A DNA stretch of 64,000 nt from Ignavibacteria bacterium UBA2360 (GTDB lineage: Bacteria > Bacteroidota > Ignavibacteria > Tepidaquicellales > OLB5), in contig DDTQ01000004.1 of the NCBI GenBank assembly GCA_002344125.1, forward strand, positions 4,717-68,716. Direction: 5' to 3'. The notes beneath the pieces were generated by a model. The model was not told the origin of the DNA. It made no database searches and was given only the letters and a program-made list of their open reading frames with translations. Below are positions 3,893 to 49,639 of the stretch, piece by piece; position 1 is the first letter of the stretch, and the number at the start of each line of letters is the position of its first letter. Made by a program: the position numbers and the translations under genes.

Positions 3893-6727
3893 ATGAGAAA
3901 ATTTTTAATATTTTTTCTATGCCCTCTTTGTATATCTTTCTTTAGTTTCAATGACAACCCGGAAATAAAGTACAAACGAGTCAATGAACGGATGATCTTA
4001 AGAGTCTCTGATGGCGCTAAGTATCAGCCCGGAATTATTAACATAAAATTCAAAAATTCCAACGATAAAGTTTCATTACTTTCAACAGGCAATGAAAAAA
4101 TAGATAATGCTGTTACACAATACAATGTCACTAAAATCTACAAACCATTTCCTCTTAAGTCAAATGTTAGCAAAAGACTTCCCGGGGATGAAGATCTCGA
4201 TAAATTTGTAACTATTAAATATGATGGTAATATAGATCCAACTGATCTTTCAAACGAGATATTCAGCCAGAATAAAGATATTCTGGAATGGGCTGAACCG
4301 GAATTCATCTATGATGCTTTGTTCGTTCCTAATGATCCTATAATTAGTCAGCAGTACCATATTGGCAAAATAAACTGTTACCAGGCGTGGGATATTACGC
4401 AGGGTGATACAAATGTAATTATTGGTATAGTTGATAGCGGAAGTGACCTTGATCACCCGGATCTTGGTGCGAATATCAAATATAATTACGCTGATCCTGA
4501 AGACGGAATTGATAATGACGGTAACGGTTATATAGATGACTTCAAAGGCTGGGATTTTTTCAATGGTGATAATGACCCCAATATAATGGGCGGCAGCGAT
4601 CATGGTTCACATGTATCCGGCTGTGCTTCACAGGTTGCTAACAATAATGTACATGGAGCAGGACCGGGTTTTAAATGTAAATTGAGAATCACTAAACATG
4701 CCCCTGATTATCCTGATAACAGTATCTATAATTCAAATGCTGGTATCATTTTTCTTTATCAAAACGGCGCTAAGGTAATCAATTGCAGCTTTGGCAGTGC
4801 AACTTACAGCGCTGCTACACAGAACATAATTAACAATGCATGGTCTGCCGGCGTAGTTATCTGCGCATCTGCCGGTAATGATGGTCTCAATACCCCTCGT
4901 TACCCCGGTTCATATGATAATGTTGTTAATGTGGCCGCTTCAAACTCGGGTGATGTTAAAGCCGGTTTTTCTAACTTCCATACCACGGTAGATATTATAG
5001 CGCCGGGTGATAATATCCTGAGCACTCTCTATGATAATGGTTATGGTAATAACAGCGGAACTTCAATGTCCACTCCCGTAACTTCCGGGGTTGTTGGCCT
5101 GATCAGATCCAAATATCCGTCATGGACAAACGCACAGGTAGTTGACAGGTTGAAACTTGGTGTTGATAGTATCTATCACCTGAATCCTTCATATGTTGGA
5201 TTGTTAGGTACTGGCAGAGTTAATGCATTTAAATGTGTTACCGATCTTCCTATTGTTTCATTGATATCGAATGTGGCCGGTGATTCACTTTATGGAAATA
5301 ATGATAAAGTGTTTGATGTTAATGAAGAAATAACTTTCAGAATAACTTATAAGAATATATGGCAGGCTGGAAGCAATATTTCATTACGGCTTTCAACTTC
5401 TGATCCAAATGTTGAGATAGTACAGGATTCTGTTTACGTTGGTAGCCTTGCTGCATATACCACATACACAACAGAGTTAACTAACACTTTCAAAGTTAAG
5501 GCAAAGAATACATGCCCATTTGATAAGGTGGTAGCTTTCAATCTAAGGACCTCAAACAATGCTTATCATGACGGAAATGCTTCAACATTCAGCGTAACGT
5601 TCAGGCAGGGATGGGCAACGCATACTATTAATAACCTGAAACTTTCTCTAACTAAAGATGGGGCTGTCGGTAAAAAAACCCAGGCTTACGGCAGCGGGCT
5701 AAACATTACCGGCTATACAGGACAGCAAATGCTGGAATCAGGTTTAATGATTGGCACAAGTAATACCAAAGTATCTGATGTTTCAAGGAGAGGCAATTCC
5801 CCCGCAAATGTTTCAGATACTGACTTCACAGCAATAAATGCTTATAACATACAGACACCCGGTATCATTTCTCATGAAGATGGTAAAGGATATTTTAATG
5901 ATGACGGTGCCGGTTCTAACAAGATCGGGGTTACTGTAAGAGCAGAGAGTTTTGCATGGAATAGCGCGCCCGATGCTAACTATATTATTCTGAAGTATAC
6001 TATTAAAAATACCAGCGGTGCGAATATATCAAACCTGTTCGCAGGGATCTATATGTACTATACACCTACAGGTATTAACAGTAATAATACAACTGCTCTT
6101 GATACTGCGAATAAGCTGGGTTATTCTTTTAATAACACTAATACAAACCCGTATCTTGGCGTAAGGCTGCTGACTGACCAGAATGTAAATTATAAAGGTA
6201 TTCTTGCTACAGAGGTTCTTACAGGATTCACAACCCAGGAAAAATGGGACGCTATGAGTGGTGGTATAGTTAATGGCGGTATCGGACCCGGTTTAAATTG
6301 CTTTGTCGTTTCTGCCGGTCCGGTTAGTATAAATAACAATGACTCAGTTGTTGTCGGGTTTGCTGTTGTAAAAGGAAATGATAAAGCGGACCTCGTGAAT
6401 AACTCCAATACTGCGAAGAATAAATTCAGTACTATCGGTATTCAACAGATATCCGGCTCAGTTCCTGTGAAATATAGTCTGTATCAAAATTATCCAAACC
6501 CGTTTAATCCTTCAACAACTATTAAGTTTGATATACCCAAAATGGATAATGTAAAGATCAGGGTATTTGATATTGTTGGCAGAGAAGTTTCTTCTTTCAG
6601 CCAGTTGCTTTCACCCGGTATATACAGCTATTCTTTTGATGGATCTAAACTTTCAAGCGGAGTATATTTCTATTCACTGGAAAGTTCCGGGTATAATGAT
6701 GTTAAAAAAATGATGTTAATTAAATAG
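3893..6727 (+). CDS. S8 subtilisin-family serine peptidase with T9SS C-terminal sorting domain
   Basis: Signal peptide. Catalytic triad contexts are GIVDSGSDLDHPDL (Asp), HGSHVSG (His) and GTSMSTP (Ser). The C-terminal ~80 aa (NYPNPFNPSTTIKFDIP...SGVYFYSL...KKMMLIK) is a T9SS type-A sorting-domain signature. Confidence 0.85.
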   Translation: MRKFLIFFLCPLCISFFSFNDNPEIKYKRVNERMILRVSDGAKYQPGIINIKFKNSNDKVSLLSTGNEKIDNAVTQYNVTKIYKPFPLKSNVSKRLPGDEDLDKFVTIKYDGNIDPTDLSNEIFSQNKDILEWAEPEFIYDALFVPNDPIISQQYHIGKINCYQAWDITQGDTNVIIGIVDSGSDLDHPDLGANIKYNYADPEDGIDNDGNGYIDDFKGWDFFNGDNDPNIMGGSDHGSHVSGCASQVANNNVHGAGPGFKCKLRITKHAPDYPDNSIYNSNAGIIFLYQNGAKVINCSFGSATYSAATQNIINNAWSAGVVICASAGNDGLNTPRYPGSYDNVVNVAASNSGDVKAGFSNFHTTVDIIAPGDNILSTLYDNGYGNNSGTSMSTPVTSGVVGLIRSKYPSWTNAQVVDRLKLGVDSIYHLNPSYVGLLGTGRVNAFKCVTDLPIVSLISNVAGDSLYGNNDKVFDVNEEITFRITYKNIWQAGSNISLRLSTSDPNVEIVQDSVYVGSLAAYTTYTTELTNTFKVKAKNTCPFDKVVAFNLRTSNNAYHDGNASTFSVTFRQGWATHTINNLKLSLTKDGAVGKKTQAYGSGLNITGYTGQQMLESGLMIGTSNTKVSDVSRRGNSPANVSDTDFTAINAYNIQTPGIISHEDGKGYFNDDGAGSNKIGVTVRAESFAWNSAPDANYIILKYTIKNTSGANISNLFAGIYMYYTPTGINSNNTTALDTANKLGYSFNNTNTNPYLGVRLLTDQNVNYKGILATEVLTGFTTQEKWDAMSGGIVNGGIGPGLNCFVVSAGPVSINNNDSVVVGFAVVKGNDKADLVNNSNTAKNKFSTIGIQQISGSVPVKYSLYQNYPNPFNPSTTIKFDIPKMDNVKIRVFDIVGREVSSFSQLLSPGIYSYSFDGSKLSSGVYFYSLESSGYNDVKKMMLIK

Positions 6728-6839: not shown

Positions 6840-8675
6840 ATGATTAAAAAGATTTCCGTGGCATTTCTGTTCTTGGTGGCAGTTGGTCTGTTGATGAACT
6901 TTACATTCAGGAATAACAACGATAGGAAAACCGCAGTATATCCTAATGTTGTTATCTCCGGTTCAGAAACACCGGTTGTTCACAGTACAGCTCCGGTAAT
7001 AAGAACAACAAATGATTTGAACCCGATTTATTTTTCGGATTCAGTTATGAGTTATGTTGATGTAAGGACAGGTCCTGAAACGATCTATGACTTACAGTCA
7101 AACGGTGTTCCGCAGCAAATTTGGCAGGATCCAAACACACCTTCAAATATACACTGTGTTTACACTGTTAATTTAACAACGGGATGGCCCGCAGCTGATA
7201 GAAGAGTGTATTATTGCTTCAGTTCAGATTACGGCGCTACCTGGAATGATTTAGGTGCTAATCCTCCGACAGGAAGCAATGGTTTTGGCTTCTGCAGCGG
7301 ATTATCAAATGGATCTGCTATCATTGGCGGTCACACAGATTTTGGAAGTGCCCCTGTAAGACTTCAGGTATTCGCTGATGTTGCTCCGGGTGCAGGTACT
7401 TTCACTCAGCTTGATCCGGGTCAAAACATAATTGGCGGTTTACAGACTATCTGGGGCAGAATTCAGCCTACCTCAAGTGTAACAAATGCTACAAAGTTTG
7501 TTGTAATGGGTTCAGTTAACTCAACAGCTTTGGATACAGTTACTGCTTATAACCGTGGATTAAGTGTTGAAACTCCTTCATATTCTGGCTGGGTAAAAGA
7601 TATGAACATTGGCAATGCTGAAGTTTACAGCTTCTCAAGAGGCAGTGACGGCAGGATTGGTCTGGCTTACGTTGCTAACGATAACGTTGTATTGTCAAAT
7701 TCAGGAAAAGCATATTACATGTATTCAACAGATGATGGCGTTACATGGTCAACACCTGTGCAAGTTTGGGAACCAACACCATATTTAGATGGTATCTATG
7801 GCGTAATGAGAGGTATTACTTTAACATATGTTGGTACAACACCTAAAGTTGCTTTTGAATTAGTTGGTCTTACAGCTACCGGTTACTATCCAAGCGGAAA
7901 AGCAGGTATCGGATTCTGGTCACCTGACGTAAACGGCGGTGTTGGCTTCGAGACCCAGTTCGATTCAACATGGAGCAACAATGGTAACGGCGGCGCAACA
8001 GACGTTATGGCTTCAATAACAAGACCTTCTATCGCAAGATCACAGGACGGTCAATTGTTAATGATGGCTTTCGGCGTATCAAGAGCTGATACAGATGCAA
8101 TTGGTTCACATTACTATGATGTATACTTAACAACCTCAACAAATGGCGGTGCAAACTGGAAATTCCCTCCAACAAGACTGACAAACAATTCAGGTCCGTT
8201 AAGAGATAACAGGTTCGCTAACTTATCACCTACAAATGATGTAACAGGCGGATTCTATTATGCAAATATTGTTTACCAGTCAGATTCTGTGGCAGGCAGC
8301 GTTACACAAACACCTCCTGCAGCTGAATCATTGGCAAAACAGAGATTCATTAGAGTTCAGTTTGATCCTACAACAATCGGTATCAATACAATCAGCAATC
8401 AGATACCTTCAAGGTTCAATTTAGAGCAGAATTATCCGAATCCGTTCAACCCGGTTACAAAGATCAGGTTCTCGGTTCCTAAATCTGCAAATGTTACACT
8501 TGAAGTATTTGACGTGACAGGAAAATTAATAGCTACATTAGCTAAGAATGAAGCTGTTACTGCTGGATTGAAAGAAGTAGAATTTAACGCATCAAGCTTA
8601 CCAAGCGGCGTTTATTTCTATTCACTGAAATCAGGTGACTATTCTGAAACTAAAAAAATGGTTCTTGTAAAATAA
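6840..8675 (+). CDS. BNR/Asp-box repeat (sialidase-like beta-propeller) protein with T9SS C-terminal sorting domain
   Basis: Signal peptide. Asp-box motifs SSDYGATW, STDDGVTW and STNGGANW. C-terminus NYPNPFNPVTKIRFSVP...SGVYFYSL...KKMVLVK. A GGAAT-type RBS (gaaagggaataaaATG) precedes the start. Confidence 0.75.
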   Translation: MIKKISVAFLFLVAVGLLMNFTFRNNNDRKTAVYPNVVISGSETPVVHSTAPVIRTTNDLNPIYFSDSVMSYVDVRTGPETIYDLQSNGVPQQIWQDPNTPSNIHCVYTVNLTTGWPAADRRVYYCFSSDYGATWNDLGANPPTGSNGFGFCSGLSNGSAIIGGHTDFGSAPVRLQVFADVAPGAGTFTQLDPGQNIIGGLQTIWGRIQPTSSVTNATKFVVMGSVNSTALDTVTAYNRGLSVETPSYSGWVKDMNIGNAEVYSFSRGSDGRIGLAYVANDNVVLSNSGKAYYMYSTDDGVTWSTPVQVWEPTPYLDGIYGVMRGITLTYVGTTPKVAFELVGLTATGYYPSGKAGIGFWSPDVNGGVGFETQFDSTWSNNGNGGATDVMASITRPSIARSQDGQLLMMAFGVSRADTDAIGSHYYDVYLTTSTNGGANWKFPPTRLTNNSGPLRDNRFANLSPTNDVTGGFYYANIVYQSDSVAGSVTQTPPAAESLAKQRFIRVQFDPTTIGINTISNQIPSRFNLEQNYPNPFNPVTKIRFSVPKSANVTLEVFDVTGKLIATLAKNEAVTAGLKEVEFNASSLPSGVYFYSLKSGDYSETKKMVLVK

Positions 8676-8694: not shown

Positions 8695-8728
8695 AAAAGG
8701 GGCATATAGAATATATGCCCCTTTTTTT
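8695..8728 (+). terminator. rho-independent terminator after the BNR/T9SS gene
   Basis: Perfect 10-bp stem ggggcatata / tatatgcccc with loop gaa, flanked by an A4 run and followed by T7, 20 nt after the stop codon. Confidence 0.8.
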
Positions 8729-8793: not shown

Positions 8794-8822
8794 TTGACTT
8801 CATTTTTTAATTATATTATATT
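8794..8822 (+). promoter_or_regulatory. candidate sigma70-type promoter for the TonB-receptor operon
   Basis: TTGACT (8794-8799), a 17-nt spacer, then TATATT (8817-8822). This would give a ~290-nt leader before the ATG at 9115. The region is AT-rich, so a chance match is possible. Confidence 0.3.
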
Positions 8823-9114
8823 TATTTCGAAAATATTAAAATAAATACAAAAACGCCGTTTAGAATTTCGGGGGATTCAATGCTGAGTTTGGCGTTGTTT
8901 GCATTTCATGTTGTAAATAGCGGAAGTATTTTAGTATTAGGTAGTAATATGTAAACTTCAATGTAGCGAAACTTTTTGCCGGAGGTATTTATGTATTTGT
9001 TCAATCGGTAAAGGGTTATTAAACGTAAAGAAGAATTATAGTAAAATAATATTTCACAAAAGGGTTCGGGAAAATTGATCCCGGAAACTTTCAAACAAAT
9101 CGGAGGTAATATAA

Positions 9115-12057
9115 ATGAGGCTATTTAACCATTTCTTTTTAGCCCTTCTTTTAATTTTCACAGTTGCCACAGTTGACCTCATATCTCAGACTACCGGAAA
9201 GATCTCCGGCGTAGTGAGAGATGATAAAGGTGAACTTCTTATCGGCGCCAGGGTCGAAGTTGAGGGTACTCAATTGCGAAGCGGTACTGATGAGAACGGT
9301 CAGTATGCTATATTGAACGTTCCTGTAGGCACATATTCTGTTAAGGTTACTTATGTAGGATATGATGCCCAGGTTCAAAACAATATCGGCGTAAGTGTCG
9401 GTATAACTTCTACTGTTGATTTTACATTGTCATCAGGAACCGGAGTTACAATTGATACACTTCAAATTATTGCAAAAAGGAAGACACTTGATAACAGCGG
9501 AAAGATCATTAATAAAGAATTTATTGATAATACCGGTATCAGGGGCATCGAAAATATCGTCGCAAAGACAAGCGGCGTTGTTCAGGATGAAAAAGGACAG
9601 AACATCAATATCAGGGGCGGAAGAACCGGTGAAACCCAGATAATCATTGATGGTGTCGTAACAAATAATCCACTGGATAGAACCTCAACTGCTAACGTAT
9701 CGAATGGTGCGCTGCAGGAGTTAGCGGTTTTAACAGGCGGTTTCAGCGCGGAATACGGTAACGTACTAAGCGGTGTGATCAATGTAACAACCAGGTCAGC
9801 TCAGGAGAACTATACCGGATCAATTGATATTGTTACGGATGTGATCGCCGGTGATCATATTGGTACGAAGTCACAGGGCTATAATATTTACAGCGTAAGC
9901 ATAGGCGGACCTGTTATTCCAACCAAAAAATTAAGTAAATACTGGTCAATATTCGGAAGTTACGAGAAAACCTATAACCTGGTTGATCAACCGGTTACTA
10001 CAAGTGTAGCTGAATTGTGGGCAGATGACGGTATCCTTCCTAACTTCTCAAGAGCAGGTCAGTCATACACAGGTAAAACAATAATCAGCATCAGCGAAAT
10101 GACCAAAGGTAAAGTCAGCATGACTTTAACCGGCGGGTTCTTTGGTAATGAAGAGACATCAAGGCTTTGGACAGGCTCATTCGGTAAGTTCAATTCTTAC
10201 CATAATCCGCTTGTGAAAGATGATAATAAACAGGGCTATTTAAAAATTAACCAGTCATTTGGCTCAAAGACATTTTATGACCTGCAGGCTTCATACCTGC
10301 AATCAACATATAAAAGAGGCGATGGTATCTTCTTTGTTGATGAGTTAATTCCTAGCTTGCCCGGAAAAGACGGTTACATGTATCCTTCTATATTAGCATA
10401 CGGTGATACCAATACTGTACCCGGAATCTCCAGTATGGGAGGAACAGTAAATTCATCTGCTAATTTCAGGGTGTTCAGAGCACCGGGAACTGTAAGCGGA
10501 CAGTATGACAAACAGAAAACACAGGCTTTATCTTTTAACCTGAATTTCACACATCAGTTGTTAACAAAGAAATTTGGTAATCATGAATTGAAATTCGGCG
10601 GTGAGTTCAAACAGTTTAAGGTTAGAAACTATTCAGCTAATGTAATTGGCTTTGGTTCGCTTCCTAACCCCAATAAGTATGGATCGGGTAATGTTGTAAA
10701 CTATCCGGTAATAGACGAAAATGGTGCTAATTCAAACTTCATGAGTGCTTATGGATACGATGTTTATGGCAATGAAGTCGAAGAAGATTATATCGTAAAC
10801 GGATTGAATGTTACCGAAGCTCCCAAAAAACCAAGGATTGGTGGTTTCTACTTACTTGATAAAATGGAGTTTGATTACTTCAATACAAATCTTGGTATCA
10901 GGATAGACTATATGGATCCTAACACATTAGTCCCAATTTCATATGAAAACCTGAAAGGCGCTGATGGTGTATTAAATGAAGCTGATTATACAACTGTTGA
11001 AAAAACAATCGAAATCAGCCCAAGACTTGGTTTCTCATTCCCTATTACTGATAAAACGGTGTTCCACGCTCAGTATGGTAAATTCATTCAGCTTCCTGCA
11101 TTGGAAAACCTGTATGAAAACCAGAGAGTTATAAGAGATCTGGCTGATGGTGGCGTAGGTTATTTTACAGTGTTCAATAACCCGTTATTAAAACCCGAAA
11201 GAACAACGGCTTATGAGCTTGGAATAAAGCACACAGCCGGTGATTACGTTACTGTAGGTCTTACCGCTTTCTACAAAGAAACATCAGATCTTATCCAGGC
11301 CAGAAATATTAAAGCACAGGATAATTCTTATAGTTTCGCGTTGTATGATAACGGTGACTTTGGTATAGTAAGAGGTTTGGATTTCAGTCTTGACCTGAGA
11401 AGAATTAACCGTTTAAGAGCATCAATTTCTTATAGTTTATCATTTGCATCAGGAACCGGATCGGATATCAATAGCCAGAGCAATATTGCTTACAACGGCG
11501 ATGAACAGCCCAAGATTCCAAGCGCATTAGATTACGATCAGAGACACACCGGTTCAGTTGAGCTCGACTACAGATGGGGCACATCTGATGTACCCAAAGG
11601 CTTCTGGGGCGGAGTATTTTCAAGGTTAGGTTTCAACGCTTTATTCAGCTTTAACAGCGGAAGGCCATATACACCTTCATTGAATTCGTACGACGTCCTT
11701 CAGGTAGTTACATCACCGGGTGGAAATACTCCTGTAGCTCCATTAAATTCAGCATATTCACCTTGGAACATGAGACTTGATCTCAAGATAGATAAGTCAT
11801 TCAAGATATTTGATAAATTGAGTGCAAACTTGTACATTCTTGCAATCAATGTTCTTGATCAGGAATTAATAAACGATGTATTCCCAACTTCAGGAGAAGC
11901 CGGATATACAGGCTTTCTTGATAGCTTCACCGGCAAACAATGGGCAAATTCAGTTGGTCAAGCAGCAGTTGATCTTTATAATATCAGATCACATGCAATT
12001 AATAACTACGGTCCTCCAAGGCAGGTAAGGCTCGGATTCAGATTATTCTTTAATTAA
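9115..12057 (+). CDS. TonB-dependent receptor-like outer membrane protein with N-terminal carboxypeptidase-regulatory-like domain
   Basis: Signal peptide. CarbopepD_reg-like segment GKISGVVRDDKGELLIGARVEVEGT...GQYAILNVPVGTYSVKVTYVGY. Plug-like segment NINIRGGRTGETQIIIDGV. A long beta-rich C-terminal barrel follows. GGAGG RBS 8 nt upstream. Confidence 0.8.
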   Translation: MRLFNHFFLALLLIFTVATVDLISQTTGKISGVVRDDKGELLIGARVEVEGTQLRSGTDENGQYAILNVPVGTYSVKVTYVGYDAQVQNNIGVSVGITSTVDFTLSSGTGVTIDTLQIIAKRKTLDNSGKIINKEFIDNTGIRGIENIVAKTSGVVQDEKGQNINIRGGRTGETQIIIDGVVTNNPLDRTSTANVSNGALQELAVLTGGFSAEYGNVLSGVINVTTRSAQENYTGSIDIVTDVIAGDHIGTKSQGYNIYSVSIGGPVIPTKKLSKYWSIFGSYEKTYNLVDQPVTTSVAELWADDGILPNFSRAGQSYTGKTIISISEMTKGKVSMTLTGGFFGNEETSRLWTGSFGKFNSYHNPLVKDDNKQGYLKINQSFGSKTFYDLQASYLQSTYKRGDGIFFVDELIPSLPGKDGYMYPSILAYGDTNTVPGISSMGGTVNSSANFRVFRAPGTVSGQYDKQKTQALSFNLNFTHQLLTKKFGNHELKFGGEFKQFKVRNYSANVIGFGSLPNPNKYGSGNVVNYPVIDENGANSNFMSAYGYDVYGNEVEEDYIVNGLNVTEAPKKPRIGGFYLLDKMEFDYFNTNLGIRIDYMDPNTLVPISYENLKGADGVLNEADYTTVEKTIEISPRLGFSFPITDKTVFHAQYGKFIQLPALENLYENQRVIRDLADGGVGYFTVFNNPLLKPERTTAYELGIKHTAGDYVTVGLTAFYKETSDLIQARNIKAQDNSYSFALYDNGDFGIVRGLDFSLDLRRINRLRASISYSLSFASGTGSDINSQSNIAYNGDEQPKIPSALDYDQRHTGSVELDYRWGTSDVPKGFWGGVFSRLGFNALFSFNSGRPYTPSLNSYDVLQVVTSPGGNTPVAPLNSAYSPWNMRLDLKIDKSFKIFDKLSANLYILAINVLDQELINDVFPTSGEAGYTGFLDSFTGKQWANSVGQAAVDLYNIRSHAINNYGPPRQVRLGFRLFFN

Positions 12058-12077
12058 CTATCGGAGTGTTAATAAAT

Positions 12078-15000
12078 ATGAAAAAAGTAAATTTAAAATT
12101 AATGTTGATATTGCTCATTGGGCTGATTTTTCTGGCTCCGGTGAACGATCTTTTTGCCAAAGAAAGGAAAGGGTACTCTCCCGTAAGAATGAATGCGGGA
12201 GTTACGAATAACTTTCTTCAGGTGAATAATATAAATGCCGTTTTCAGAAGCGATGGTTATTTTAACTATGATAAGATCAACTTTCTGAATGGCGAAGCAG
12301 GAATGATCTGGCCGGTATCGGCCGGTTCAAGGCAAACAGCTATCTTTACAACCGGTATCTATATCGGAGCTAAAGTAAATGGCGAGCTTAGGCTTGCTGC
12401 TTCAATGTTTAATACACATTTTTCACCCGGTAATATTCCGGTCGTTGGGCAGGTTCCGGGATCTTCTGTTTGCGCTGATCCCAGAATAAGGAACTACCAG
12501 GTTAATTTAAATGATCCTTCTTTGGTTAACGGCGGTACAAGAGTTAAAAACGCCGGCGGAAGAGATTACACCATAGTTTACGATTCATGGGCTAGCTGGC
12601 CGATTGATCTGGGTGCGCCGTATGTTGAAGTGAACGGTATCCCCGGTTATCAGCCTGAATTTGATGGTGACAGACCCGGAATCGGTAACAGCTCAGCTCG
12701 TCCAGACGAAATTATCTGGTGCGTATTCATGGATTATACAAATTGTACCAATAATCAGCACGTGGCTGAAATATCACTGCCCGGCGGAACACTGCCGATG
12801 GGTGTAGAAGTACAACAGACATCCTTTGCATTTCTTGCTCCGGGTTTAACAAATATGTATTTTGTTAAATGGAAAATTATTAACAAAAGCAATGATACTT
12901 GGGATAGTACTTTTACAGCGATTGCCTGCGATCCAGATCTTGGTGATGCCGGTGATGACGCCGTGGGCTGCGATTCTTTACAAAATATTGCATACTGCTA
13001 TAACCAGGATAACGTTGACGTAATTTATGGCGCAGCGCCGCCAGCTGTGGGCTTTAAATATTTGCAGAGCCCAATCGTTTTCACTGGTGATCCTAACGAT
13101 ACTGCTCATTTACCATACGGTAATCTGGTAGGTTATAAATCTGTTGGTTTATCCTTGTTTACAACATTTGCAAATAGCGGTAATGAATGTTTTGGTGACC
13201 CCGACCAGGCAATAAATGCTTGGAATTTTATGAGATATGGTGAAGGCTGTGCTAATCCGTTGATAAACTATACAACGGGCGGACCTTCTAACTATAAATA
13301 TAACGGTGATGTATGCACAACTCCTCCTCAAGGCTGGTATGATAGTCTTCCCGGAGATAAAAGGTTCTTACAGGTAAGCGGTCCTTTTGTAATGAACTCG
13401 CAGGACACGCAGATAATTGTTATTGGCGCCTTTATTGAAAGAGGTGCAAGTAATTATCAGAGCGTTTGCGCATTACTTGAATCCGGTGACAGAGTACAGA
13501 AATTCTATAGCTCCAACTTCGCTGCTACACCATTACCTCCTGCTCCGCAGGTTAATGTTGTTGCAAACGGCGATGGAAAGATCACACTCTATTGGGGGTC
13601 AAGGTCAGAAGCCTATAATGTGTATGACTCACTGGGTCAGACTGGTTCATGGGTTTTCCAGGGCTATAACCTGTACCAGATAAAACCCGGTACTTCCGGT
13701 GATAATCTCGAAGATAGGGTGCTTCTGGGTGTTTATGACAGAATTGATGGAATTAAAATTGTAAATGATACGGTAAGAGTCGCACAGCCAAACGGTACCA
13801 CACAGGATATCTATCAGCCTGTCGCTTTTGGTAATGATAATGGAGTTAGAAGGCTTGTTACTTTAACTGCAAATCAGTTCCCATCAGGCGTTAACAACTT
13901 CTTCATCAACGGTACTTCTTACAGATTTGCGGTAACTGCTTATGGTGTAAACCTGAATGCAGGTAAACCTTTCAAAGTCCTTGAAAATCCTGTATCATCA
14001 CAGATCATCAATGTAGTACCAAATGCTCCAATGATTGGAACTAACTTTATTAACCGTTCTCTTGATACTATTCCTATTGATAGGCCGGACAGGGTTTTTG
14101 CGGCCGTAGTTGTTGATCCTGCGAAAGTCTTGACGGCTCAATACAGGATGGTATGGACAAGCAACACAACATGGAAAGTTGTAAGGATCCAGAATGCCCA
14201 GACAGATACAATTCTTGGCAACATGAATTCCAGATCATTTAATGATAATGATGCTTATGTTGCTGACGGACTTTTGTTCAAAGTTGATACAATTGCTAAA
14301 GCGCTTTACGGCGTTATCAAAGATCCGGGTCCCGGAACCCAATCAGTTAACCGCGGCTGGAATTATACCGGAGGTAACCTGAACTTGGCCGGTGCAGATA
14401 CAGCTGCTTTACGGACATTATTTACAACCAATTATTTACCGCCCCAGAGTTTATCAATGGGTCTATCGTGGCCTAATGGTATTACTTCATACAGGGCTAA
14501 CTATAACACAAGAATTGATACCAATTTCTTGAGTGTTTCAGCATTGAAAAATGTGAAGATCACTTTCGGAACAACCCAAAAAGCATATAGGTACAGGGGA
14601 ATAGTTACCAACTCACCATACCAGGATTATGTTGATGTTCCGTTTAAAGTAGAAATAGATGATCCATTGGATACAAACTCATCAGTTCCAAGACAGCTGA
14701 ATATTGCATTCTATGACGGTGACTCAAGCGGTACATGGAATCCAAATACTTCAGGCAGTGGTGGAGCTGAATTTGTTTATATTATGTATTCAACATACGA
14801 TCCAAATCCAAATACATTCTATACAACAAAGAATCTCAGCTTCCTGGCTCAATTCAGGGCAATGGATATAATGTATGTTTGGCAGCCAAGGCTTCTAAAT
14901 AACGGTCCTGCATTCAGCAACGGTGATGTTCTTGAGATCATTCCTTACACAAGATTGCAGTATCAGCAGTCACCGGGCACTGTTACAACAGCCACAACAA

Positions 15001-15371
15001 TAAGCACAACGGCTCCTGTAATTGGAAATACTGAATTAGCATCTACAAGAGGTGAATTATCATCAGTCAGAGTTGTCCCGAATCCGTATTATGGCGGACA
15101 TGCTCAGGAATCAAGTCCGTTTGACAGATTTGTTAAGTTCATGAATATGCCGAAGCAGGCTACAATCTTCATATATACATTGAACGGAAATCTTGTAAGA
15201 CAGATTAACAAAGATGATAATACAACAACGATCAATTGGGATTTGTTAAATACTGATAGAGTTCCTGTAGCAAGCGGAATTTATATCGCGTTTATCGATG
15301 CCCCGGGTATAGGTACAAAAACAATAAAACTTGCGATCTTCACTCCGCAGGAAAGAATTGATTCGTTCTAA
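12078..15371 (+). CDS. large secreted protein of unknown function with divergent T9SS/FlgD-Ig-like C-terminal domain
   Basis: I prefer the ATG at 12078 (MKKVNLKLMLILLIGLIFLAP signal peptide) over the GTG at 12066. I cannot name any domain in ~1000 aa. The last ~90 aa (VRVVPNPYYGG...ATIFIYTLNGNLV...SGIYIAFIDAPG...) resemble a sorting or Ig-like tail. Confidence 0.75.
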   Translation: MKKVNLKLMLILLIGLIFLAPVNDLFAKERKGYSPVRMNAGVTNNFLQVNNINAVFRSDGYFNYDKINFLNGEAGMIWPVSAGSRQTAIFTTGIYIGAKVNGELRLAASMFNTHFSPGNIPVVGQVPGSSVCADPRIRNYQVNLNDPSLVNGGTRVKNAGGRDYTIVYDSWASWPIDLGAPYVEVNGIPGYQPEFDGDRPGIGNSSARPDEIIWCVFMDYTNCTNNQHVAEISLPGGTLPMGVEVQQTSFAFLAPGLTNMYFVKWKIINKSNDTWDSTFTAIACDPDLGDAGDDAVGCDSLQNIAYCYNQDNVDVIYGAAPPAVGFKYLQSPIVFTGDPNDTAHLPYGNLVGYKSVGLSLFTTFANSGNECFGDPDQAINAWNFMRYGEGCANPLINYTTGGPSNYKYNGDVCTTPPQGWYDSLPGDKRFLQVSGPFVMNSQDTQIIVIGAFIERGASNYQSVCALLESGDRVQKFYSSNFAATPLPPAPQVNVVANGDGKITLYWGSRSEAYNVYDSLGQTGSWVFQGYNLYQIKPGTSGDNLEDRVLLGVYDRIDGIKIVNDTVRVAQPNGTTQDIYQPVAFGNDNGVRRLVTLTANQFPSGVNNFFINGTSYRFAVTAYGVNLNAGKPFKVLENPVSSQIINVVPNAPMIGTNFINRSLDTIPIDRPDRVFAAVVVDPAKVLTAQYRMVWTSNTTWKVVRIQNAQTDTILGNMNSRSFNDNDAYVADGLLFKVDTIAKALYGVIKDPGPGTQSVNRGWNYTGGNLNLAGADTAALRTLFTTNYLPPQSLSMGLSWPNGITSYRANYNTRIDTNFLSVSALKNVKITFGTTQKAYRYRGIVTNSPYQDYVDVPFKVEIDDPLDTNSSVPRQLNIAFYDGDSSGTWNPNTSGSGGAEFVYIMYSTYDPNPNTFYTTKNLSFLAQFRAMDIMYVWQPRLLNNGPAFSNGDVLEIIPYTRLQYQQSPGTVTTATTISTTAPVIGNTELASTRGELSSVRVVPNPYYGGHAQESSPFDRFVKFMNMPKQATIFIYTLNGNLVRQINKDDNTTTINWDLLNTDRVPVASGIYIAFIDAPGIGTKTIKLAIFTPQERIDSF

Positions 15372-15409
15372 ACAGTAATGTAAATAAATCAATAAGGAGC
15401 TTAAAAAAA

Positions 15410-16474
15410 ATGAAATTATATCATAAAATAAAAACAGCTGCTAAATCAGCATTGATATTTACATTGCTGATAGGCAGTATTAGTTTTGCAGGAGACCGTA
15501 GCAAATACGGTACTTCTGCAGCGCCGGAATTACTCATTCCGGTTGGATCGAGAGGAACTTCTTTAAGCGGCTCTATGATCTCTTCAACTTCAGGTATTGA
15601 TGCTATGTATTGGAACCCGGCTGGTCTTTCACTTATGAACAGTAAGACAGAAGTTCTTGCTTCACATATGAAGTACATTGCCGATATCAATATTAACTAT
15701 GTTGCCGGCGCAGTCGATATGGGCAATCTTGGTGTTATTGGTGCAAGCTTGAAATCACTCAGCTTTGGTGATGAACTTGTTACTACACTGGAAAGTCCTA
15801 ACGGAACCGGTGAAGTTTGGTCTCCAACTTATCTTACCACATCACTTTCTTATGCCAGAAAGATGTCCGATAAGATATTATTCGGCGCAACCGTGAAAGT
15901 CATTTACGAGCAGATACTTACCGTTTCATCAACAGGATTCGCTGTGGATTTCGGTTTGCAGTATCTTGCTGGTAAATCAGGTCTGAAGTTCGGTGTAGCT
16001 TTAAAGAACTTCGGTCCTTCAATGACATTTGACGGCAGCGGATTAGATCAGTACTACTCTCCGGCAGGTACACCTGTTGGTTCTACACCTGAACCAAGGA
16101 GAGTTACACTGAATGACTTCTCGCTTCCTACTACGCTTGAGATCGGCATTTCTTATGATCTGCCAATGGGCAAAAAGAACAATGTTCAGTTATCAACAAC
16201 ATTCCAGAATAATAACTTTTCAAGCGACGAATACAGAGTTGGTTTGGAGTACAATTACAGCAACTACGTATTCTTAAGAGGTGCTTATGCTTTTACACCG
16301 GATTACAAAGTTGAAGATGGTCTTACAAGAAAAGATCAGAATCTCTTTGGACCCACATTTGGTGTAGGGTTGCAGTATCCTTTTGGCACAGTAAAGCTTG
16401 GACTTGATTATTCATACAGAATGACTGAGAAGTTCCAGCCTAATCAATGGTTCTCATTCACAATGGGCTTCTAG
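15410..16474 (+). CDS. PorV/PorQ-family outer membrane beta-barrel protein
   Basis: Signal peptide. The N-terminal segment GTSAAPELLIPVGSRGTSLSGSMISSTSGIDAMYWNPAGLS matches the characteristic PorV-family opening motif. The rest has alternating beta-strand-like sequence and ends in ...WFSFTMGF. AAGGAG RBS. Confidence 0.6.
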   Translation: MKLYHKIKTAAKSALIFTLLIGSISFAGDRSKYGTSAAPELLIPVGSRGTSLSGSMISSTSGIDAMYWNPAGLSLMNSKTEVLASHMKYIADININYVAGAVDMGNLGVIGASLKSLSFGDELVTTLESPNGTGEVWSPTYLTTSLSYARKMSDKILFGATVKVIYEQILTVSSTGFAVDFGLQYLAGKSGLKFGVALKNFGPSMTFDGSGLDQYYSPAGTPVGSTPEPRRVTLNDFSLPTTLEIGISYDLPMGKKNNVQLSTTFQNNNFSSDEYRVGLEYNYSNYVFLRGAYAFTPDYKVEDGLTRKDQNLFGPTFGVGLQYPFGTVKLGLDYSYRMTEKFQPNQWFSFTMGF

Positions 16475-16502
16475 TTCATTGATAGAATAAATTTCTAATC
16501 TT

Positions 16503-16540
16503 GAAAATGCCATTTACTTCTGTAAATGGCATTTTCTGTT
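16503..16540 (+). terminator. hairpin / possible terminator or attenuator between the PorV-like and GWxTD genes
   Basis: Perfect 14-bp stem gaaaatgccattta / taaatggcattttc with loop cttctg. It is followed by only a short T-rich tail (tgtt). Confidence 0.5.
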
Positions 16541-16559
16541 ACTAAAATTAATAATACTT

Positions 16560-17927
16560 ATGTTTAAAAGAATTAATCAAATCATCATCCTTATCACTCT
16601 TTTTAGCACAGCCATTTTCTCACAGAACGAACTTTCATTTGATTATGACTATGCAATTTTCAGGGACGAAGGCTCAAAGGTTTTCCTTGAACTCTATTAT
16701 TCTTTTTCACCGCAAGAAATGAAGTTTGTGCAGGTCGCCGGCGGATTTGAAGCCAGCGGTAAATTGCAGCTCGATGTGCTAAATAAAGGTACAGGCCAAA
16801 CGATCGTCGCTAAGGATTTCAGGATCCCGGTGACGCTAGCTGACACATCAGGAAGTACCAAAGACTTCAAATTAACAGGACAGCTGAACCTTTTGCTTGA
16901 TTCAGGTACCTACGCGGTCAAAATGAATGCTTCGGATTTCAATAACCCATCGAAAACAAGTTTTGTGGAAGAAGAGATAGTACTTAAGCCCTTTCCCTTA
17001 AACAAAGTTATTATGAGTACTATTGAGCTTGGAACAAGCATTGTTAAGAGTACCGATGAAAACAATATCTTCTACAAGAATACGCTTGAGGTTACCCCGA
17101 ACCCATCAAACCTGTTTGGTAACAACATCTCAAAACTCTATTACTATCTTGAATTGTACAATCTGAATAATGCTGAACTCGGTGAAAAGTATTCAATAGT
17201 AACTTCTGTAAACAGCAAAGATGGTACTGAGTTGAGCTCCAGTGTTAAAAAATATGACCTGAAGTCTGAATCTAAAGTTGAATATGGATCTGTAGATATC
17301 AGCGGTTTACCTTCCAACAGCTACCAGTTGTTTGTAAAACTGCTCGATAGCGGAGATAGTGAAATTCTCAGAGCGTACAAATATTTCTATGTTTTCAGTA
17401 GTGATACCGGTACTGGCAGCCAGAATTTAACAGATCTTGAAAATCAGTACTTGCTTAGCGAGTATCCCAAACTCACAGAAAAACAGGTAGATGATGAATT
17501 TAATAAGGCTATCTATTTAATGAGTGACCAGCAAAAGAATAAATATGAAACTCTCAAGAGCACCGATGAAAAGAGAATGTATATGTTCAATTACTGGAGA
17601 GGAATCGCTGCTTATATTACTAAAAAGGAATATTTAGCCCGAATTGATTTTGCTAATAAAAATTTCAAGAGCGATTTGCGCGAAGGATGGAAAACAGATA
17701 GAGGAAGAATTACTGCAATTTACGGAAAGTATGATGAGATTGAAAGATTTCCGTATGAAGGATCAACACGCGCATATGAAATATGGACATACAATAAACT
17801 GCAGGGCGGCGCTGTTTTCGTTTTCATTGATAACAGCTCCGGATTTGGAGATTACATACTTGCGCACTCCACAGCGCAAAATGAGATAAGAGACGATAAT
17901 TGGCGTGATAGGATCAATATCAGGTAA
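16560..17927 (+). CDS. GWxTD domain-containing protein
   Basis: Signal peptide. The C-terminal region contains the eponymous motif (REGWKTDRGRITAIYGKYDEIERFPYEG...YEIWTY). Confidence 0.7.
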   Translation: MFKRINQIIILITLFSTAIFSQNELSFDYDYAIFRDEGSKVFLELYYSFSPQEMKFVQVAGGFEASGKLQLDVLNKGTGQTIVAKDFRIPVTLADTSGSTKDFKLTGQLNLLLDSGTYAVKMNASDFNNPSKTSFVEEEIVLKPFPLNKVIMSTIELGTSIVKSTDENNIFYKNTLEVTPNPSNLFGNNISKLYYYLELYNLNNAELGEKYSIVTSVNSKDGTELSSSVKKYDLKSESKVEYGSVDISGLPSNSYQLFVKLLDSGDSEILRAYKYFYVFSSDTGTGSQNLTDLENQYLLSEYPKLTEKQVDDEFNKAIYLMSDQQKNKYETLKSTDEKRMYMFNYWRGIAAYITKKEYLARIDFANKNFKSDLREGWKTDRGRITAIYGKYDEIERFPYEGSTRAYEIWTYNKLQGGAVFVFIDNSSGFGDYILAHSTAQNEIRDDNWRDRINIR

Positions 17928-17934
17928 ACTCTTA

Positions 17935-17957
17935 AGCCCCGCTTGCGGGGCTTTTTT
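17935..17957 (+). terminator. rho-independent terminator
   Basis: gccccg cttg cggggc hairpin followed by T6, 8 nt after the stop codon. The same 28-nt sequence recurs at 43877-43904. Confidence 0.8.
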
Positions 17958-47221: not shown

Positions 47222-49639
47222 ATGTCTTGTTGGCTTCCTATTTTTGTTAGTAAAGAAATTAATAAATTTATGGATAATGATTTCAATAAGATTAATTCTC
47301 TAATAGAAAAAGCAATTAATTTACAAAGTAGAGAACTTATTATAAGAGGATACAATTGTAAAAGACTACCGGAGAATATTGGTAATGCAGTACATTTAAG
47401 TGAATTATTTATTGAAGGAATCAATCTTGAAGAGTTGCCTGCTTCAATAGGGAACCTTCATAATTTAGATTCACTCTATTTAAGTGAAAATAAAATAAGA
47501 ATTTTACCTAATTCTATTGCAAAATTAAAGTCTATTAGGACATTAGGGCTAAGTAATAATAGGTTTAATAAAATACCACCACAAGTTTTTAAACTAAGAT
47601 ATTTGCATAATTTGTATTTGAACGGTAATGAAATTGCTGTTTTAGATCCCAAAATCAGTGAATTACATTATTTAGAATATTTGGATTTTAGTTTCAACAA
47701 AATCTCACAAATACCGGAAAATTTTTCGAAATTGAAAAATTTGAAATTTCTTGATTTGATGTATAATAAGATTAGGCAGTTTCCAAAAGAGTTAGTAAAT
47801 AACAGTAATTTAGTAGACTTGAATTTAGGTTCTAATTTGATCGATTCGATAGATCATTTGAGCAGTATGGAGTATTTGCAAAGCATAACGTTAGAGTCTA
47901 ATAGGATTTATTCTATACCGTTAGACATTTCGAAAATGCAAAATTTAAAAAGTTTGAATTTGAGTTACAATAATATTAGAGTCTTGCCACGAGAGTTATC
48001 CCAAATTGGGACATTGAAAGAACTAAATGTGGAAAACAATCCTCTTGTTGTACCCCCAATAGAGATCCTTTATGATGGTATTAAAGCAATCGAAAACTAC
48101 TATGATTCAATAGGGGAACAAGAAACATTTTACTTATATGAAGCGAAGTTACTGATTGTGGGCTCTGGCGGTGTGGGTAAAACTACTATCTTAAATTGTT
48201 TGGTTGATTCTGAAATTGGAGATTTAAAAAGTATCAAGACAACGGAAGGAATAAAAGTAGAAAATTGGTATTTAAAAACTGATAAAAACATCAATTTCCG
48301 TGTCAATATTTGGGATTTTGGCGGTCAGGAGATTTATCATGCAACTCATCAGTTTTTTCTTACCAAAAGATCATTGTATGTTTTTGTTTGGGATGCAAGA
48401 ACAGATGATAATCTATTAAGTTTTGATTATTGGCTAAACATAATTGATTTATTAAGTGATTCAAGTCCAGTTATTGTTATTATGAATAAGCTAGATGAAA
48501 GAAATAGAATGCTTGATGAAGAATCATTAAAAAGAAAATTCCCAAATATTAAATCATTTCATAAAGTGAGTGCTTTAAATGGTGTAGGTTTAGACTATCT
48601 AAAAACCTTAATTAGAGAACAGGTTGTAACATTACCGCATGTCGGTGATACACTTCCAATTGTGTGGAAGGAAATTCGTGAACATTTAGAGAAGTTGAAT
48701 GATAATTACATATCTTATAAAGAATATTTAAAATTATGTCATAAATTTAATCTATCAAAACCAAGGGCAGTTTATCTTAGCAGATATTTCCACATTTTAG
48801 GGGTTTTTTTACATTTTGAAGATAATCCATTGCTAAAGAATACTCTTATTCTAAAGCCAGAATGGGCCACACAAGCTGTTTATAAAATTGTTGATAATAT
48901 CGAAGTTCAAAAAAAATACGGTGTTTTGGAATATACTCAATTGTCTGAAATATGGGAGTTGTACCCACATGACAAATATGAGGTACTTATTGAATTAATG
49001 AAAAAATTTGAATTGTGTTTTGAGATTGCTAATAGTAAAGTCTATATAATTCCTGAACTCTTAAATCCTGTAAAGCCCAGTTTTGGTTGGGATGAAGATA
49101 ATAACTTGCGATTTGAATACAGCTATAAGTTTATGCCTGCAGGTTTAATAACGAGATTAATAGTAAGGATACATGATCTAATCAAAAATGATTTCTATTG
49201 GAAGAACGGATTTATTTTGACTTTTGAAAATACTGAAGCGTTAGTTATAGCGGAGGGTTTAGATAGGAAAATAAGAATATGGTTGAATGGTAGTAAAAAA
49301 AGGGAACTACTTGCTATAATAAGAAGAGAAATTTACGCAATACATAAATCATTAAATAATTTATTTGTTGAAGAAAGAATTCAATGTATTTGCTCTGAAT
49401 GTAAGAAATCATTTTCTCCATATTTCCATATTTTTGATGATTTATATATAGCTAGGCAAAAGAACAGAAAATCTACTGAATGTAAAAAGAGTTTTCAAAA
49501 CGTTAATATTGAAGAATTGTTAGGTTCAGCAATTGGCCCAAATTCAGAAGAGGGTATTAGTACTCCTACTAATCCAACTATTAATATCGATAACAGTCTT
49601 GTCAATTTTGCAGATTCTATAGGTGATATAATCAAGTAA
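47222..49639 (+). CDS. ROCO protein: leucine-rich repeats + Roc (Ras-of-complex) GTPase + COR domain
   Basis: About 11 LRRs (LxxLxLxxNxIxxIP, aa ~35-290). Roc motifs are G1 GSGGVGKT (48161-48184), G3 DFGGQ (48314-48328), G4 NKLD (48484-48495) and G5 SAL. A COR-like region follows (WKEIREHL...ILKPEWATQAVYKIV), then the tail CICSECKK...TECKKS. An alternative start is the ATG at 47270. Confidence 0.85.
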   Translation: MSCWLPIFVSKEINKFMDNDFNKINSLIEKAINLQSRELIIRGYNCKRLPENIGNAVHLSELFIEGINLEELPASIGNLHNLDSLYLSENKIRILPNSIAKLKSIRTLGLSNNRFNKIPPQVFKLRYLHNLYLNGNEIAVLDPKISELHYLEYLDFSFNKISQIPENFSKLKNLKFLDLMYNKIRQFPKELVNNSNLVDLNLGSNLIDSIDHLSSMEYLQSITLESNRIYSIPLDISKMQNLKSLNLSYNNIRVLPRELSQIGTLKELNVENNPLVVPPIEILYDGIKAIENYYDSIGEQETFYLYEAKLLIVGSGGVGKTTILNCLVDSEIGDLKSIKTTEGIKVENWYLKTDKNINFRVNIWDFGGQEIYHATHQFFLTKRSLYVFVWDARTDDNLLSFDYWLNIIDLLSDSSPVIVIMNKLDERNRMLDEESLKRKFPNIKSFHKVSALNGVGLDYLKTLIREQVVTLPHVGDTLPIVWKEIREHLEKLNDNYISYKEYLKLCHKFNLSKPRAVYLSRYFHILGVFLHFEDNPLLKNTLILKPEWATQAVYKIVDNIEVQKKYGVLEYTQLSEIWELYPHDKYEVLIELMKKFELCFEIANSKVYIIPELLNPVKPSFGWDEDNNLRFEYSYKFMPAGLITRLIVRIHDLIKNDFYWKNGFILTFENTEALVIAEGLDRKIRIWLNGSKKRELLAIIRREIYAIHKSLNNLFVEERIQCICSECKKSFSPYFHIFDDLYIARQKNRKSTECKKSFQNVNIEELLGSAIGPNSEEGISTPTNPTINIDNSLVNFADSIGDIIK

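Follow-up and report, generated by a model that had tools for sequence, protein, structure and literature searches.

The stretch of DNA analysed here, 64,000 nucleotides from the genome of Ignavibacteria bacterium UBA2360 (contig DDTQ01000004.1, positions 4,717 to 68,716; hereafter the window), carries four consecutive genes on its forward strand that we refer to as the module. According to the open reading frame (ORF) calls, they encode a TonB-dependent transporter (TBDT; 9115–12057, 980 aa), a giant protein of 1,097 aa (12078–15371), a PorV-like barrel (15410–16474, 354 aa) and a GWxTD protein (16560–17927, 455 aa), and they are separated by gaps of 20, 38 and 85 nt, in agreement with a preliminary description of the locus. 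An alternative GTG start of the giant gene at 12066 falls within the ribosome-binding site (RBS), and a GGAG lies 8–11 nt 5' of the ATG at 12078; owing to this placement of the GGAG, the ATG is most likely the start, and the length of 1,097 aa and the gap of 20 nt are then right.

The two top scores of a terminator scan flank the four genes and correspond to the strong terminators placed on both sides by the preliminary description. The upstream intrinsic terminator (8695–8725, forward strand), a 14-pair stem followed by a T-run, ends the preceding gene, and the downstream one (17934–17953, forward strand) has an 8-pair stem with 6 GC pairs followed by a T-run. The best promoter of the region, a sigma-70-type TTGACT-17 nt-TATATT element with a 10/12 match (8794–8822, forward strand), is located 3' of the upstream terminator, and this block is kept in loci L002, L005, L006 and L009. 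It is followed by a leader of ~285 nt (8830–9114, forward strand; folding z = −3.2 against shuffled sequences), in which a hairpin (~9058–9090) lies directly 5' of the RBS, GGAGG at 9102–9106. In loci L001, L005 and L006 the pairing of this hairpin is retained although the stem sequences differ, and a T-run follows it, so that the leader hairpin looks like an attenuator. Given their own conserved promoter, the leader and the flanking terminators, the four genes look like a single transcription unit, which lends support to the operon that had been proposed. Between the PorV-like and GWxTD genes, a perfect 11-bp hairpin (AAATGCCATTT-8 nt-AAATGGCATTT, then TCTGTT; 16505–16534, forward strand) is a possible partial terminator that could attenuate the GWxTD gene and set this accessory gene apart from the core.

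The product of the first gene passes the Pfam cut-offs of PF00593 (84.1 bits, cut-off 27) and PF07715 (36.8 bits, cut-off 23.9), as well as those of PF13620 (CarboxypepD_reg) and PF25183 (outer-membrane beta-barrel domain). Its architecture consists of a signal peptide, a CarboxypepD_reg N-terminal extension (NTE; residues 30–106), a TonB-box-like segment, a plug and a 22-strand-type barrel. Across 57 orthologues, a V.I.A.R segment resembling the TonB box (here DTLQIIAKR) is conserved between the NTE and the plug, and the plug motifs IRGGR and TGGFSAEYG..SGVINV are kept together with the C-terminal aromatic residue. By these domains and motifs, gene 1 is a bona fide TBDT with canonical importer features. 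The SusC/RagA model TIGR04056 reached 29.9 bits against a cut-off of 368, in a match limited to the N-terminal residues 29–233, and no full-length SusC or RagA chain was found among the PDB matches of the TBDT family profile. The profile matched PhuR, Cir, PirA and XusA, with XusA (9GBC) being the only solved chain covered from the NTE into the barrel; XusA is the transporter component of XusAB, a siderophore system assisted by a lipoprotein (bioRxiv 10.1101/2024.04.15.589501).

The giant protein has an SPI-type signal peptide, with no lipobox and no Cys in the signal region. The preliminary description could not name any domain in it, and this still holds, as no Pfam or NCBIfam domain was detected in the body of the window protein or of 30 diverse relatives and only weak partial matches were returned when the AlphaFold2 (AF2) model was searched against the PDB with Foldseek, the top match being PorZ via its C-terminal sorting domain (CTD). 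The AF2 model, based on a 31-sequence alignment (predicted local distance difference test, pLDDT, of 80.2), is almost all beta and comprises an N-terminal beta domain (~48–480), an FN3-like region in which the family motif YxFQGYNxYQ sits, further beta domains and a C-terminal beta-sandwich. In the same searches, the N-terminal region resembled beta-sandwiches that have no catalytic role in GH94 and GH116 enzymes, with TM-scores of 0.16–0.19. The invariant residues of the family are mostly Asp, Gly and Pro and include the Asp-rich motif DPDLGDAGDDAVGCD; no Cys is conserved at ≥60% and His232 (87%) is the sole conserved His.

No enzyme or catalytic fold is apparent in the model. The giant was considered as a divergent PorU sortase and rejected, as there is no match to NF033707 or Peptidase_C25, the model is almost all beta and there is no conserved Cys/His dyad; the Foldseek comparison with PorU (6za2) gave a probability of 0.35 and a TM-score of 0.08. 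The absence of a conserved Cys and the all-beta fold exclude a PorU-like cysteine-peptidase role. An identity with PorZ was also rejected, since NF052228 gave 31 bits against a cut-off of 260, over CTD positions 667–755 only, and the model has no propellers. The preliminary description had further placed the giant in the position of a SusD-like partner, and it does follow the TBDT gene, but the likeness is one of position alone, the giant being all beta and without a lipobox; when inspected for features of SusD-like partners, it displayed no lipobox Cys, no SusD Pfam match and no alpha-helical fold.

The giant ends in what we assign as a specialised type IX secretion system (T9SS) CTD (15048–15368, forward strand), formed by residues ~995–1091 in GTG numbering and a conserved extension (AIFTPQERIDSF), with the pattern AIFxPEERxxxF conserved after the last strand. 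On the type A model TIGR04183 the tail scored 16 bits (cut-off 23), with no PF18962 match for the window protein, whereas three other cargo proteins of the window (3893–6727, 6840–8675 and 61573–63195) pass TIGR04183 with 38–50 bits; the difference between the giant tail and these three tails, pointed out in the preliminary description, is therefore borne out. Sorting-domain and FlgD-Ig models, which had been proposed as a check of the tail, revealed its homology to type A domains: HHalign comparison with a type A CTD profile from the same genomes gave a probability of 96.7% (E = 3.3e-10), and in a sample of the giant family PF18962 matched 10 of 31 members (best E = 7e-11) and FlgD_ig 8 of 31. 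Among type B models, TIGR04131 gave no match at E ≤ 0.1 and CHU_C matched one of the 31 members (E = 0.005). The best named match of the tail is the PorZ CTD (E = 8.8e-8). The median score of the giant tails is 145 bits with their own hidden Markov model (HMM) versus 21 bits with the type A HMM, ordinary CTDs show the reverse, and every giant keeps the special tail, orphan and tandem paralogs included. Judged by these profile comparisons, the giant tail is a T9SS sorting domain, a homologue of type A domains and yet a separate subfamily.

The third product passes the PorV/PorQ family model NF033709 (173.6 bits, cut-off 90) and fails the equivalog models for PorV (NF033710, 61 bits, cut-off 250), PorQ (NF033711, 84.1 bits, cut-off 220) and PorV2 (NF052325, 84 bits, cut-off 325), the highest equivalog score being that of PorQ, level with PorV2. 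A profile of the module-linked barrels matched F. johnsoniae PorV (6h3i_F) with E = 7.8e-22 and the FadL-type TodX with E = 3.7e-5, and its PDB matches were limited to PorV and TodX-type chains. Module-linked barrels match one another at E = 1e-64 to 1e-110, compared with ~1e-12 for other PorV/PorQ genes in the same loci. By these scores the barrel is a 14-strand-type member of the PorV/PorQ family that belongs to a module-specific subfamily and resembles PorV far more closely than FadL; it classifies inside the PorV/PorQ family, as its earlier designation as PorV-like had implied. PorV is the carrier that binds type A CTDs (PMC10994853), PorP-like barrels anchor type B CTD proteins encoded beside them (PMC9143113), and PorU/PorV and PorZ/PorQ are surface attachment complexes (PMC12704123, PMC5445135).

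The principle of pairing a CTD protein with a barrel recurs, because further pairs of a CTD protein and a PorV/PorQ-family barrel are present at L034 (15519–21429), L050 (1284–4774) and L059 (16024–19776), which suggests that there are several private cargo-barrel pairs per genome. These additional pairs, which belong to Zixibacteria, Gemmatimonas and Latescibacteria, are located at a distance of a few kb from the module, and one of their CTD proteins is a propeller with a PorZ-like CTD. They were also considered as a second canonical porU-porV pair, which was rejected, as none of them passes the PorU or PorV equivalog models.

The conservation of the arrangement was investigated in 80 fetched loci, each count being limited to loci with enough flank on the tested side. 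A TBDT gene is found upstream of the giant in 56 of 64 loci and a PorV-like gene downstream in 64 of 74; the triad of TBDT, giant and PorV-like barrel is complete in 50 of the 57 loci with both flanks available, and it extends over Ignavibacteria, Zixibacteria, Eisenbacteria, Latescibacteria, Kryptonia and Gemmatimonas. The seven loci that depart from it represent surplus or orphan giants (L023, for example, has five paralogs in tandem) and a single locus that lacks the transporter. The same order was found in independent gene calls on other contigs. On these counts, the triad arrangement is far from chance and recurs in several phyla. The divergence of TBDT, giant and barrel is also correlated (mirror-tree, r = 0.83–0.92), but since the correlation is confounded by species phylogeny we do not use it as evidence.

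The fourth gene is less tightly linked. Its product passes TIGR04514 (64.2 bits, cut-off 28) and PF20094 (48.4 bits, cut-off 26.9) and has a signal peptide, no CTD and no lipobox. The AF2 model (pLDDT 83.3) displays two Ig/FN3-like beta-sandwiches and a C-terminal alpha+beta GWxTD domain, for which Foldseek gave no informative match; the rest of the model matched generic tandem beta-sandwiches only, such as RbmA and transglutaminase C-domains. In 28 of 64 loci a GWxTD gene is found downstream at a distance of up to 8 kb; it sometimes lies upstream or farther off, and in other lineages an NHL-repeat protein stands in its place. By this distribution the GWxTD protein is an accessory, lineage-restricted member, and the synteny of the four-gene module suggested earlier stands for the triad, whereas the fourth gene is more loosely associated.

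In an exhaustive profile search, the giant family comprised 6,004 representative clusters (50% identity) with E ≤ 1e-30, a number that rose to 12,063 with E ≤ 1e-10, and at least 594 relatives were retrieved from species-representative genomes. Among the relatives listed are Ignavibacteria and their relatives, Zixibacteria, Eisenbacteria, Latescibacteria, Kryptoniota, Gemmatimonas and sequences with Calditrichota labels, and the database labels of family members are only "hypothetical" or "T9SS sorting domain-containing". The five tandem giants of L023 (2699–20091) are 74–86% identical and without a transporter or PorV-like gene of their own; 85–92% of the tail columns are identical in all five versus 20–75% elsewhere, the N-terminal and middle regions varying most. 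Orphan or tandem giants are also found in L019, L020, L022 and L064. A 1,177-aa ORF of the window (52134–55667) was considered as a giant paralog and rejected, as it has no similarity to the giant and no Pfam or NCBIfam match.

A census of neighbouring genes in 78 clusters revealed only assorted housekeeping genes, which change freely beyond the module. Two associations are limited to particular lineages. The first is with a 611-aa BNR-like protein termed c1 (6840–8675, forward strand) with a canonical type A CTD that passes PF18962 and TIGR04183. Homologues of c1 adjoin the TBDT gene upstream in 19 loci (including L002, L005, L006, L009 and L013) while in L060, L061 and L076 they come after the gene for the PorV-like or the GWxTD protein; L081–L083 share a c1 neighbour. 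Because a terminator stands between c1 and the module, c1 is probably a separate transcript, but it may be a fifth, lineage-restricted partner. The second is seen in Melioribacteraceae-type loci, where genes for a lipid A acyltransferase and a GT9 heptosyltransferase of the lipopolysaccharide (LPS) core lie directly downstream (L056 15820–17787; also L051, L054, L057 and L066).

By its gene content and order, the module combines features of SusCD-type, PorU/PorV-PorZ/PorQ and type B/PorP systems. As in SusCD, RagAB, BtuBG and XusAB, the gene of the candidate surface partner directly follows that of a TBDT with a CarboxypepD_reg NTE, and XusA is the best solved match to the module TBDT over NTE, plug and part of the barrel. 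The partner itself differs from the alpha-helical SusD and from the beta-propeller lids BtuG and XusB in that it has 1,097 aa, is all beta and carries a T9SS CTD and no lipobox; also unlike SusCD-type systems, there is a third gene for a PorV-like barrel, PUL (polysaccharide utilization locus)-type enzymes and regulators are absent and the SusC/RagA model failed. The combination of a CTD surface protein with a PorV/PorQ-family barrel is shared with PorU-PorV and PorZ-PorQ of P. gingivalis; the giant gene lies upstream of the barrel gene as porU does of porV, and the giant tail is most similar to the PorZ CTD. Unlike these pairs, the giant has neither a C25 fold nor propellers, the PorU, PorZ, PorV and PorQ equivalog models fail, and a TBDT belongs to the unit. 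Type B cargo-PorP/SprF pairs such as SprB-SprF likewise consist of a cargo gene followed by its own carrier/anchor gene, with several paralogs possible (PMC9143113), but the module barrel belongs to the PorV/PorQ family and the giant CTD is derived from type A.

Three further systems share single features with the module. PorF (PG0534), compared by its description, is a plug-containing, TonB-receptor-like barrel linked to the T9SS (PMC5445135, PMC12704123), but unlike the module TBDT it has not been reported beside a PorV/PorQ gene or a giant CTD protein. In Oar-PopC of Myxococcus xanthus, a TBDT of the same architecture is tied to the secreted protease PopC (PMC6434023), which, unlike the giant, has no T9SS CTD or PorV-like partner. 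In BamG-BamH, a 14-strand barrel of the FadL superfamily bears a large extracellular protein, and the pair is conserved across phyla of the Fibrobacterota-Chlorobiota-Bacteroidota (FCB) group (PMC12611786, PMC12578637); unlike the giant and the module barrel, BamH is a lipoprotein and BamG lies outside the PorV/PorQ family. The module was considered as a BamG/BamH system and rejected, since a lipobox is missing from the giant and, at E ≤ 1, no BamG chain of the PDB was matched by the barrel profile (PMC12611786). Full-text literature searches for GWxTD, for PorV-like or PorV2, for PorV with TonB and for T9SS with Ignavibacteria returned no description of the module, consistent with the earlier impression that the arrangement is uncharacterised.

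We propose a model in which the T9SS exports the giant, a dedicated barrel holds its CTD at the cell surface and the giant assists the TBDT; we consider that this combined model falls just short of an even chance of being correct. The giant would be exported by Sec to the periplasm, and the T9SS would move it through the outer membrane via its CTD, as its signal peptide and CTD homology suggest. Its CTD would not be cleaved and linked to LPS like that of type A cargo but would stay on the PorV-like barrel, which would act as private carrier and anchor of the giant, by analogy with PorU-PorV, PorZ-PorQ and the type B CTD-PorP/SprF pairs. Anchored beside or over the TBDT, the giant could capture or pass on a ligand, which the TBDT would import with TonB energy. 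The assisting role is suggested by the gene order together with the documented lipoprotein-assisted transporters (SusCD, BtuBG, XusAB): the giant may play the part of the surface lipoproteins in SusCD, RagAB, BtuBG and XusAB, with a T9SS/PorV-like anchor replacing the lipid. Additional giant paralogs, which keep this tail, would have the one barrel and the one transporter in common, and in Ignavibacteria-type lineages the GWxTD protein would act as a secreted accessory. The occurrence as a single copy in a housekeeping context, and the heme and siderophore receptors and XusA as nearest solved relatives, weakly hint at a scarce small nutrient, and not a bulk polymer, as the substrate of the TBDT.

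Several observations weigh against this combined model. The giant has no recognisable ligand-binding domain, the Foldseek resemblance to GH94/GH116 being weak. Neither the 78-cluster census nor single-gene scans detected TonB/ExbBD, extracytoplasmic function (ECF) sigma or anti-sigma factors, hybrid two-component systems (HTCS), an inner-membrane transporter or consistent enzymes, and a PUL-like interpretation is weakened by this absence of enzymes and regulators from the surroundings. The leader provides no clue to the substrate either, with no significant Rfam family match and no riboswitch. We also dropped an argument for retention of the CTD from its conservation, since the CTD of the ordinary type A cargo family c1 is likewise more conserved than its body (0.68 vs 0.43); conservation alone gives no support for retention. 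The loci seen have one full triad per genome, in housekeeping surroundings with no catabolic genes, which would agree with the trio being an accessory of the T9SS or of envelope biogenesis, in which a PorF-like barrel would be combined with a surface protein that retains its CTD as PorZ does and with an anchor of the PorQ kind, and which might handle glycan or LPS for cargo attachment. In P. gingivalis, the T9SS includes PorF (PG0534), a component that resembles TonB receptors (PMC5445135, PMC12704123), the giant tail is best matched by the PorZ CTD, PorQ is the top equivalog of the barrel (level with PorV2) and the trio adjoins the lipid A acyltransferase and GT9 heptosyltransferase genes in Melioribacteraceae-type loci. 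However, the adjacency to LPS genes is confined to this one lineage type, every equivalog score is far under its cut-off, the giant is without beta-propellers and its PorZ match is confined to the CTD, and the tandem and orphan giants, up to five in L023, suggest that the family has diversified in a way uncommon among core parts of a machinery. We regard such an accessory function as unlikely, though far from negligible.

That no separate general PorV was identified also speaks against a dedicated barrel, and raises the question of whether the genes are merely adjacent, the barrel being the general T9SS carrier, the giant an abundant cargo such as an adhesin or coat protein, and the TBDT an unrelated nutrient receptor that stays close through co-expression or by chance. 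The giant is multidomain and beta-rich with FN3/Ig-like parts, as are many adhesins, and type A cargo genes cluster around the module. Against this, the order and tight spacing are kept across at least six phylum-level lineages while the other neighbours change, the giant CTD is a distinct subfamily and not a general type A tail, and the loci of Zixibacteria, Latescibacteria and Gemmatimonas have extra PorV/PorQ genes beside other CTD proteins, which together make mere adjacency rather improbable. A transporter that works outward, in the manner of Oar, and helps in the secretion or release of the giant with the PorV-like barrel as receiver, appears least credible and is given only a slight chance. 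The TBDT does have the Oar architecture (CarboxypepD_reg NTE, plug and barrel), passes PF25183 and is encoded nearly contiguously with the giant in almost all loci, but this architecture is the commonest among Bacteroidetes TBDT importers (PMC6434023), the T9SS CTD already explains the export of the giant, it is implausible that a protein of 1,097 aa would pass in folded form through a barrel of 22 strands, and orphan giants exist without a TBDT of their own.

Returning to the combined model of T9SS export, anchoring and assisted transport, the barrel and the giant may tentatively be viewed as a third class of T9SS carrier/anchor pair beside PorV/type A and PorP/SprF/type B, in which the dedicated barrel would dock the specialised CTD permanently and the giant would be a TBDT subunit, although we lean towards the opposite. 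With the same reserve, such a class could do with the T9SS what lipoprotein-assisted transporters do in Bacteroidia; it would occur throughout the non-Bacteroidia FCB phyla, with exchangeable giants on a common platform of one transporter and one anchor. This, too, we find somewhat doubtful. The module genetically joins assisted TonB-dependent transport and PorV-type handling of T9SS cargo, two FCB themes that have been treated separately so far. If the complex is true, it would represent a non-lipid way of bringing the partner of a transporter to the cell surface, broaden the carrier/anchor principle known from the T9SS and offer a first functional entry point to a family that is widespread in Ignavibacteria, Zixibacteria, Latescibacteria, Eisenbacteria and relatives. 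Should the module instead serve the T9SS or the envelope as an accessory, it could help to explain what the TonB-receptor-like PorF does.

Peptidases and amidohydrolases were observed a few genes or less from some modules, namely large Amidohydro_1 proteins, S8 and M6 peptidases each with a CTD, an NlpC/P60 protein and a C39-like peptidase (L081 1–4611, window 3893–6727, L028 14472–17270, L039 14153–14911 and L078 13949–15001). As this set is inconsistent, a peptide-related substrate is at most weakly hinted at. A Tubulin_2 (PF13809) protein of ~1,140 aa is conserved in Ignavibacteria loci, where only a few genes separate it from the module upstream of it (L013 19373–22795, reverse strand), with counterparts in L011, L017, L018, L021 and L024. 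Elsewhere in the window, a 501-aa ORF on the reverse strand (59003–60508) has no Pfam or NCBIfam match, and an 805-aa protein (47222–49639) displays leucine-rich repeats and a small-GTPase domain in a Roco-like architecture.

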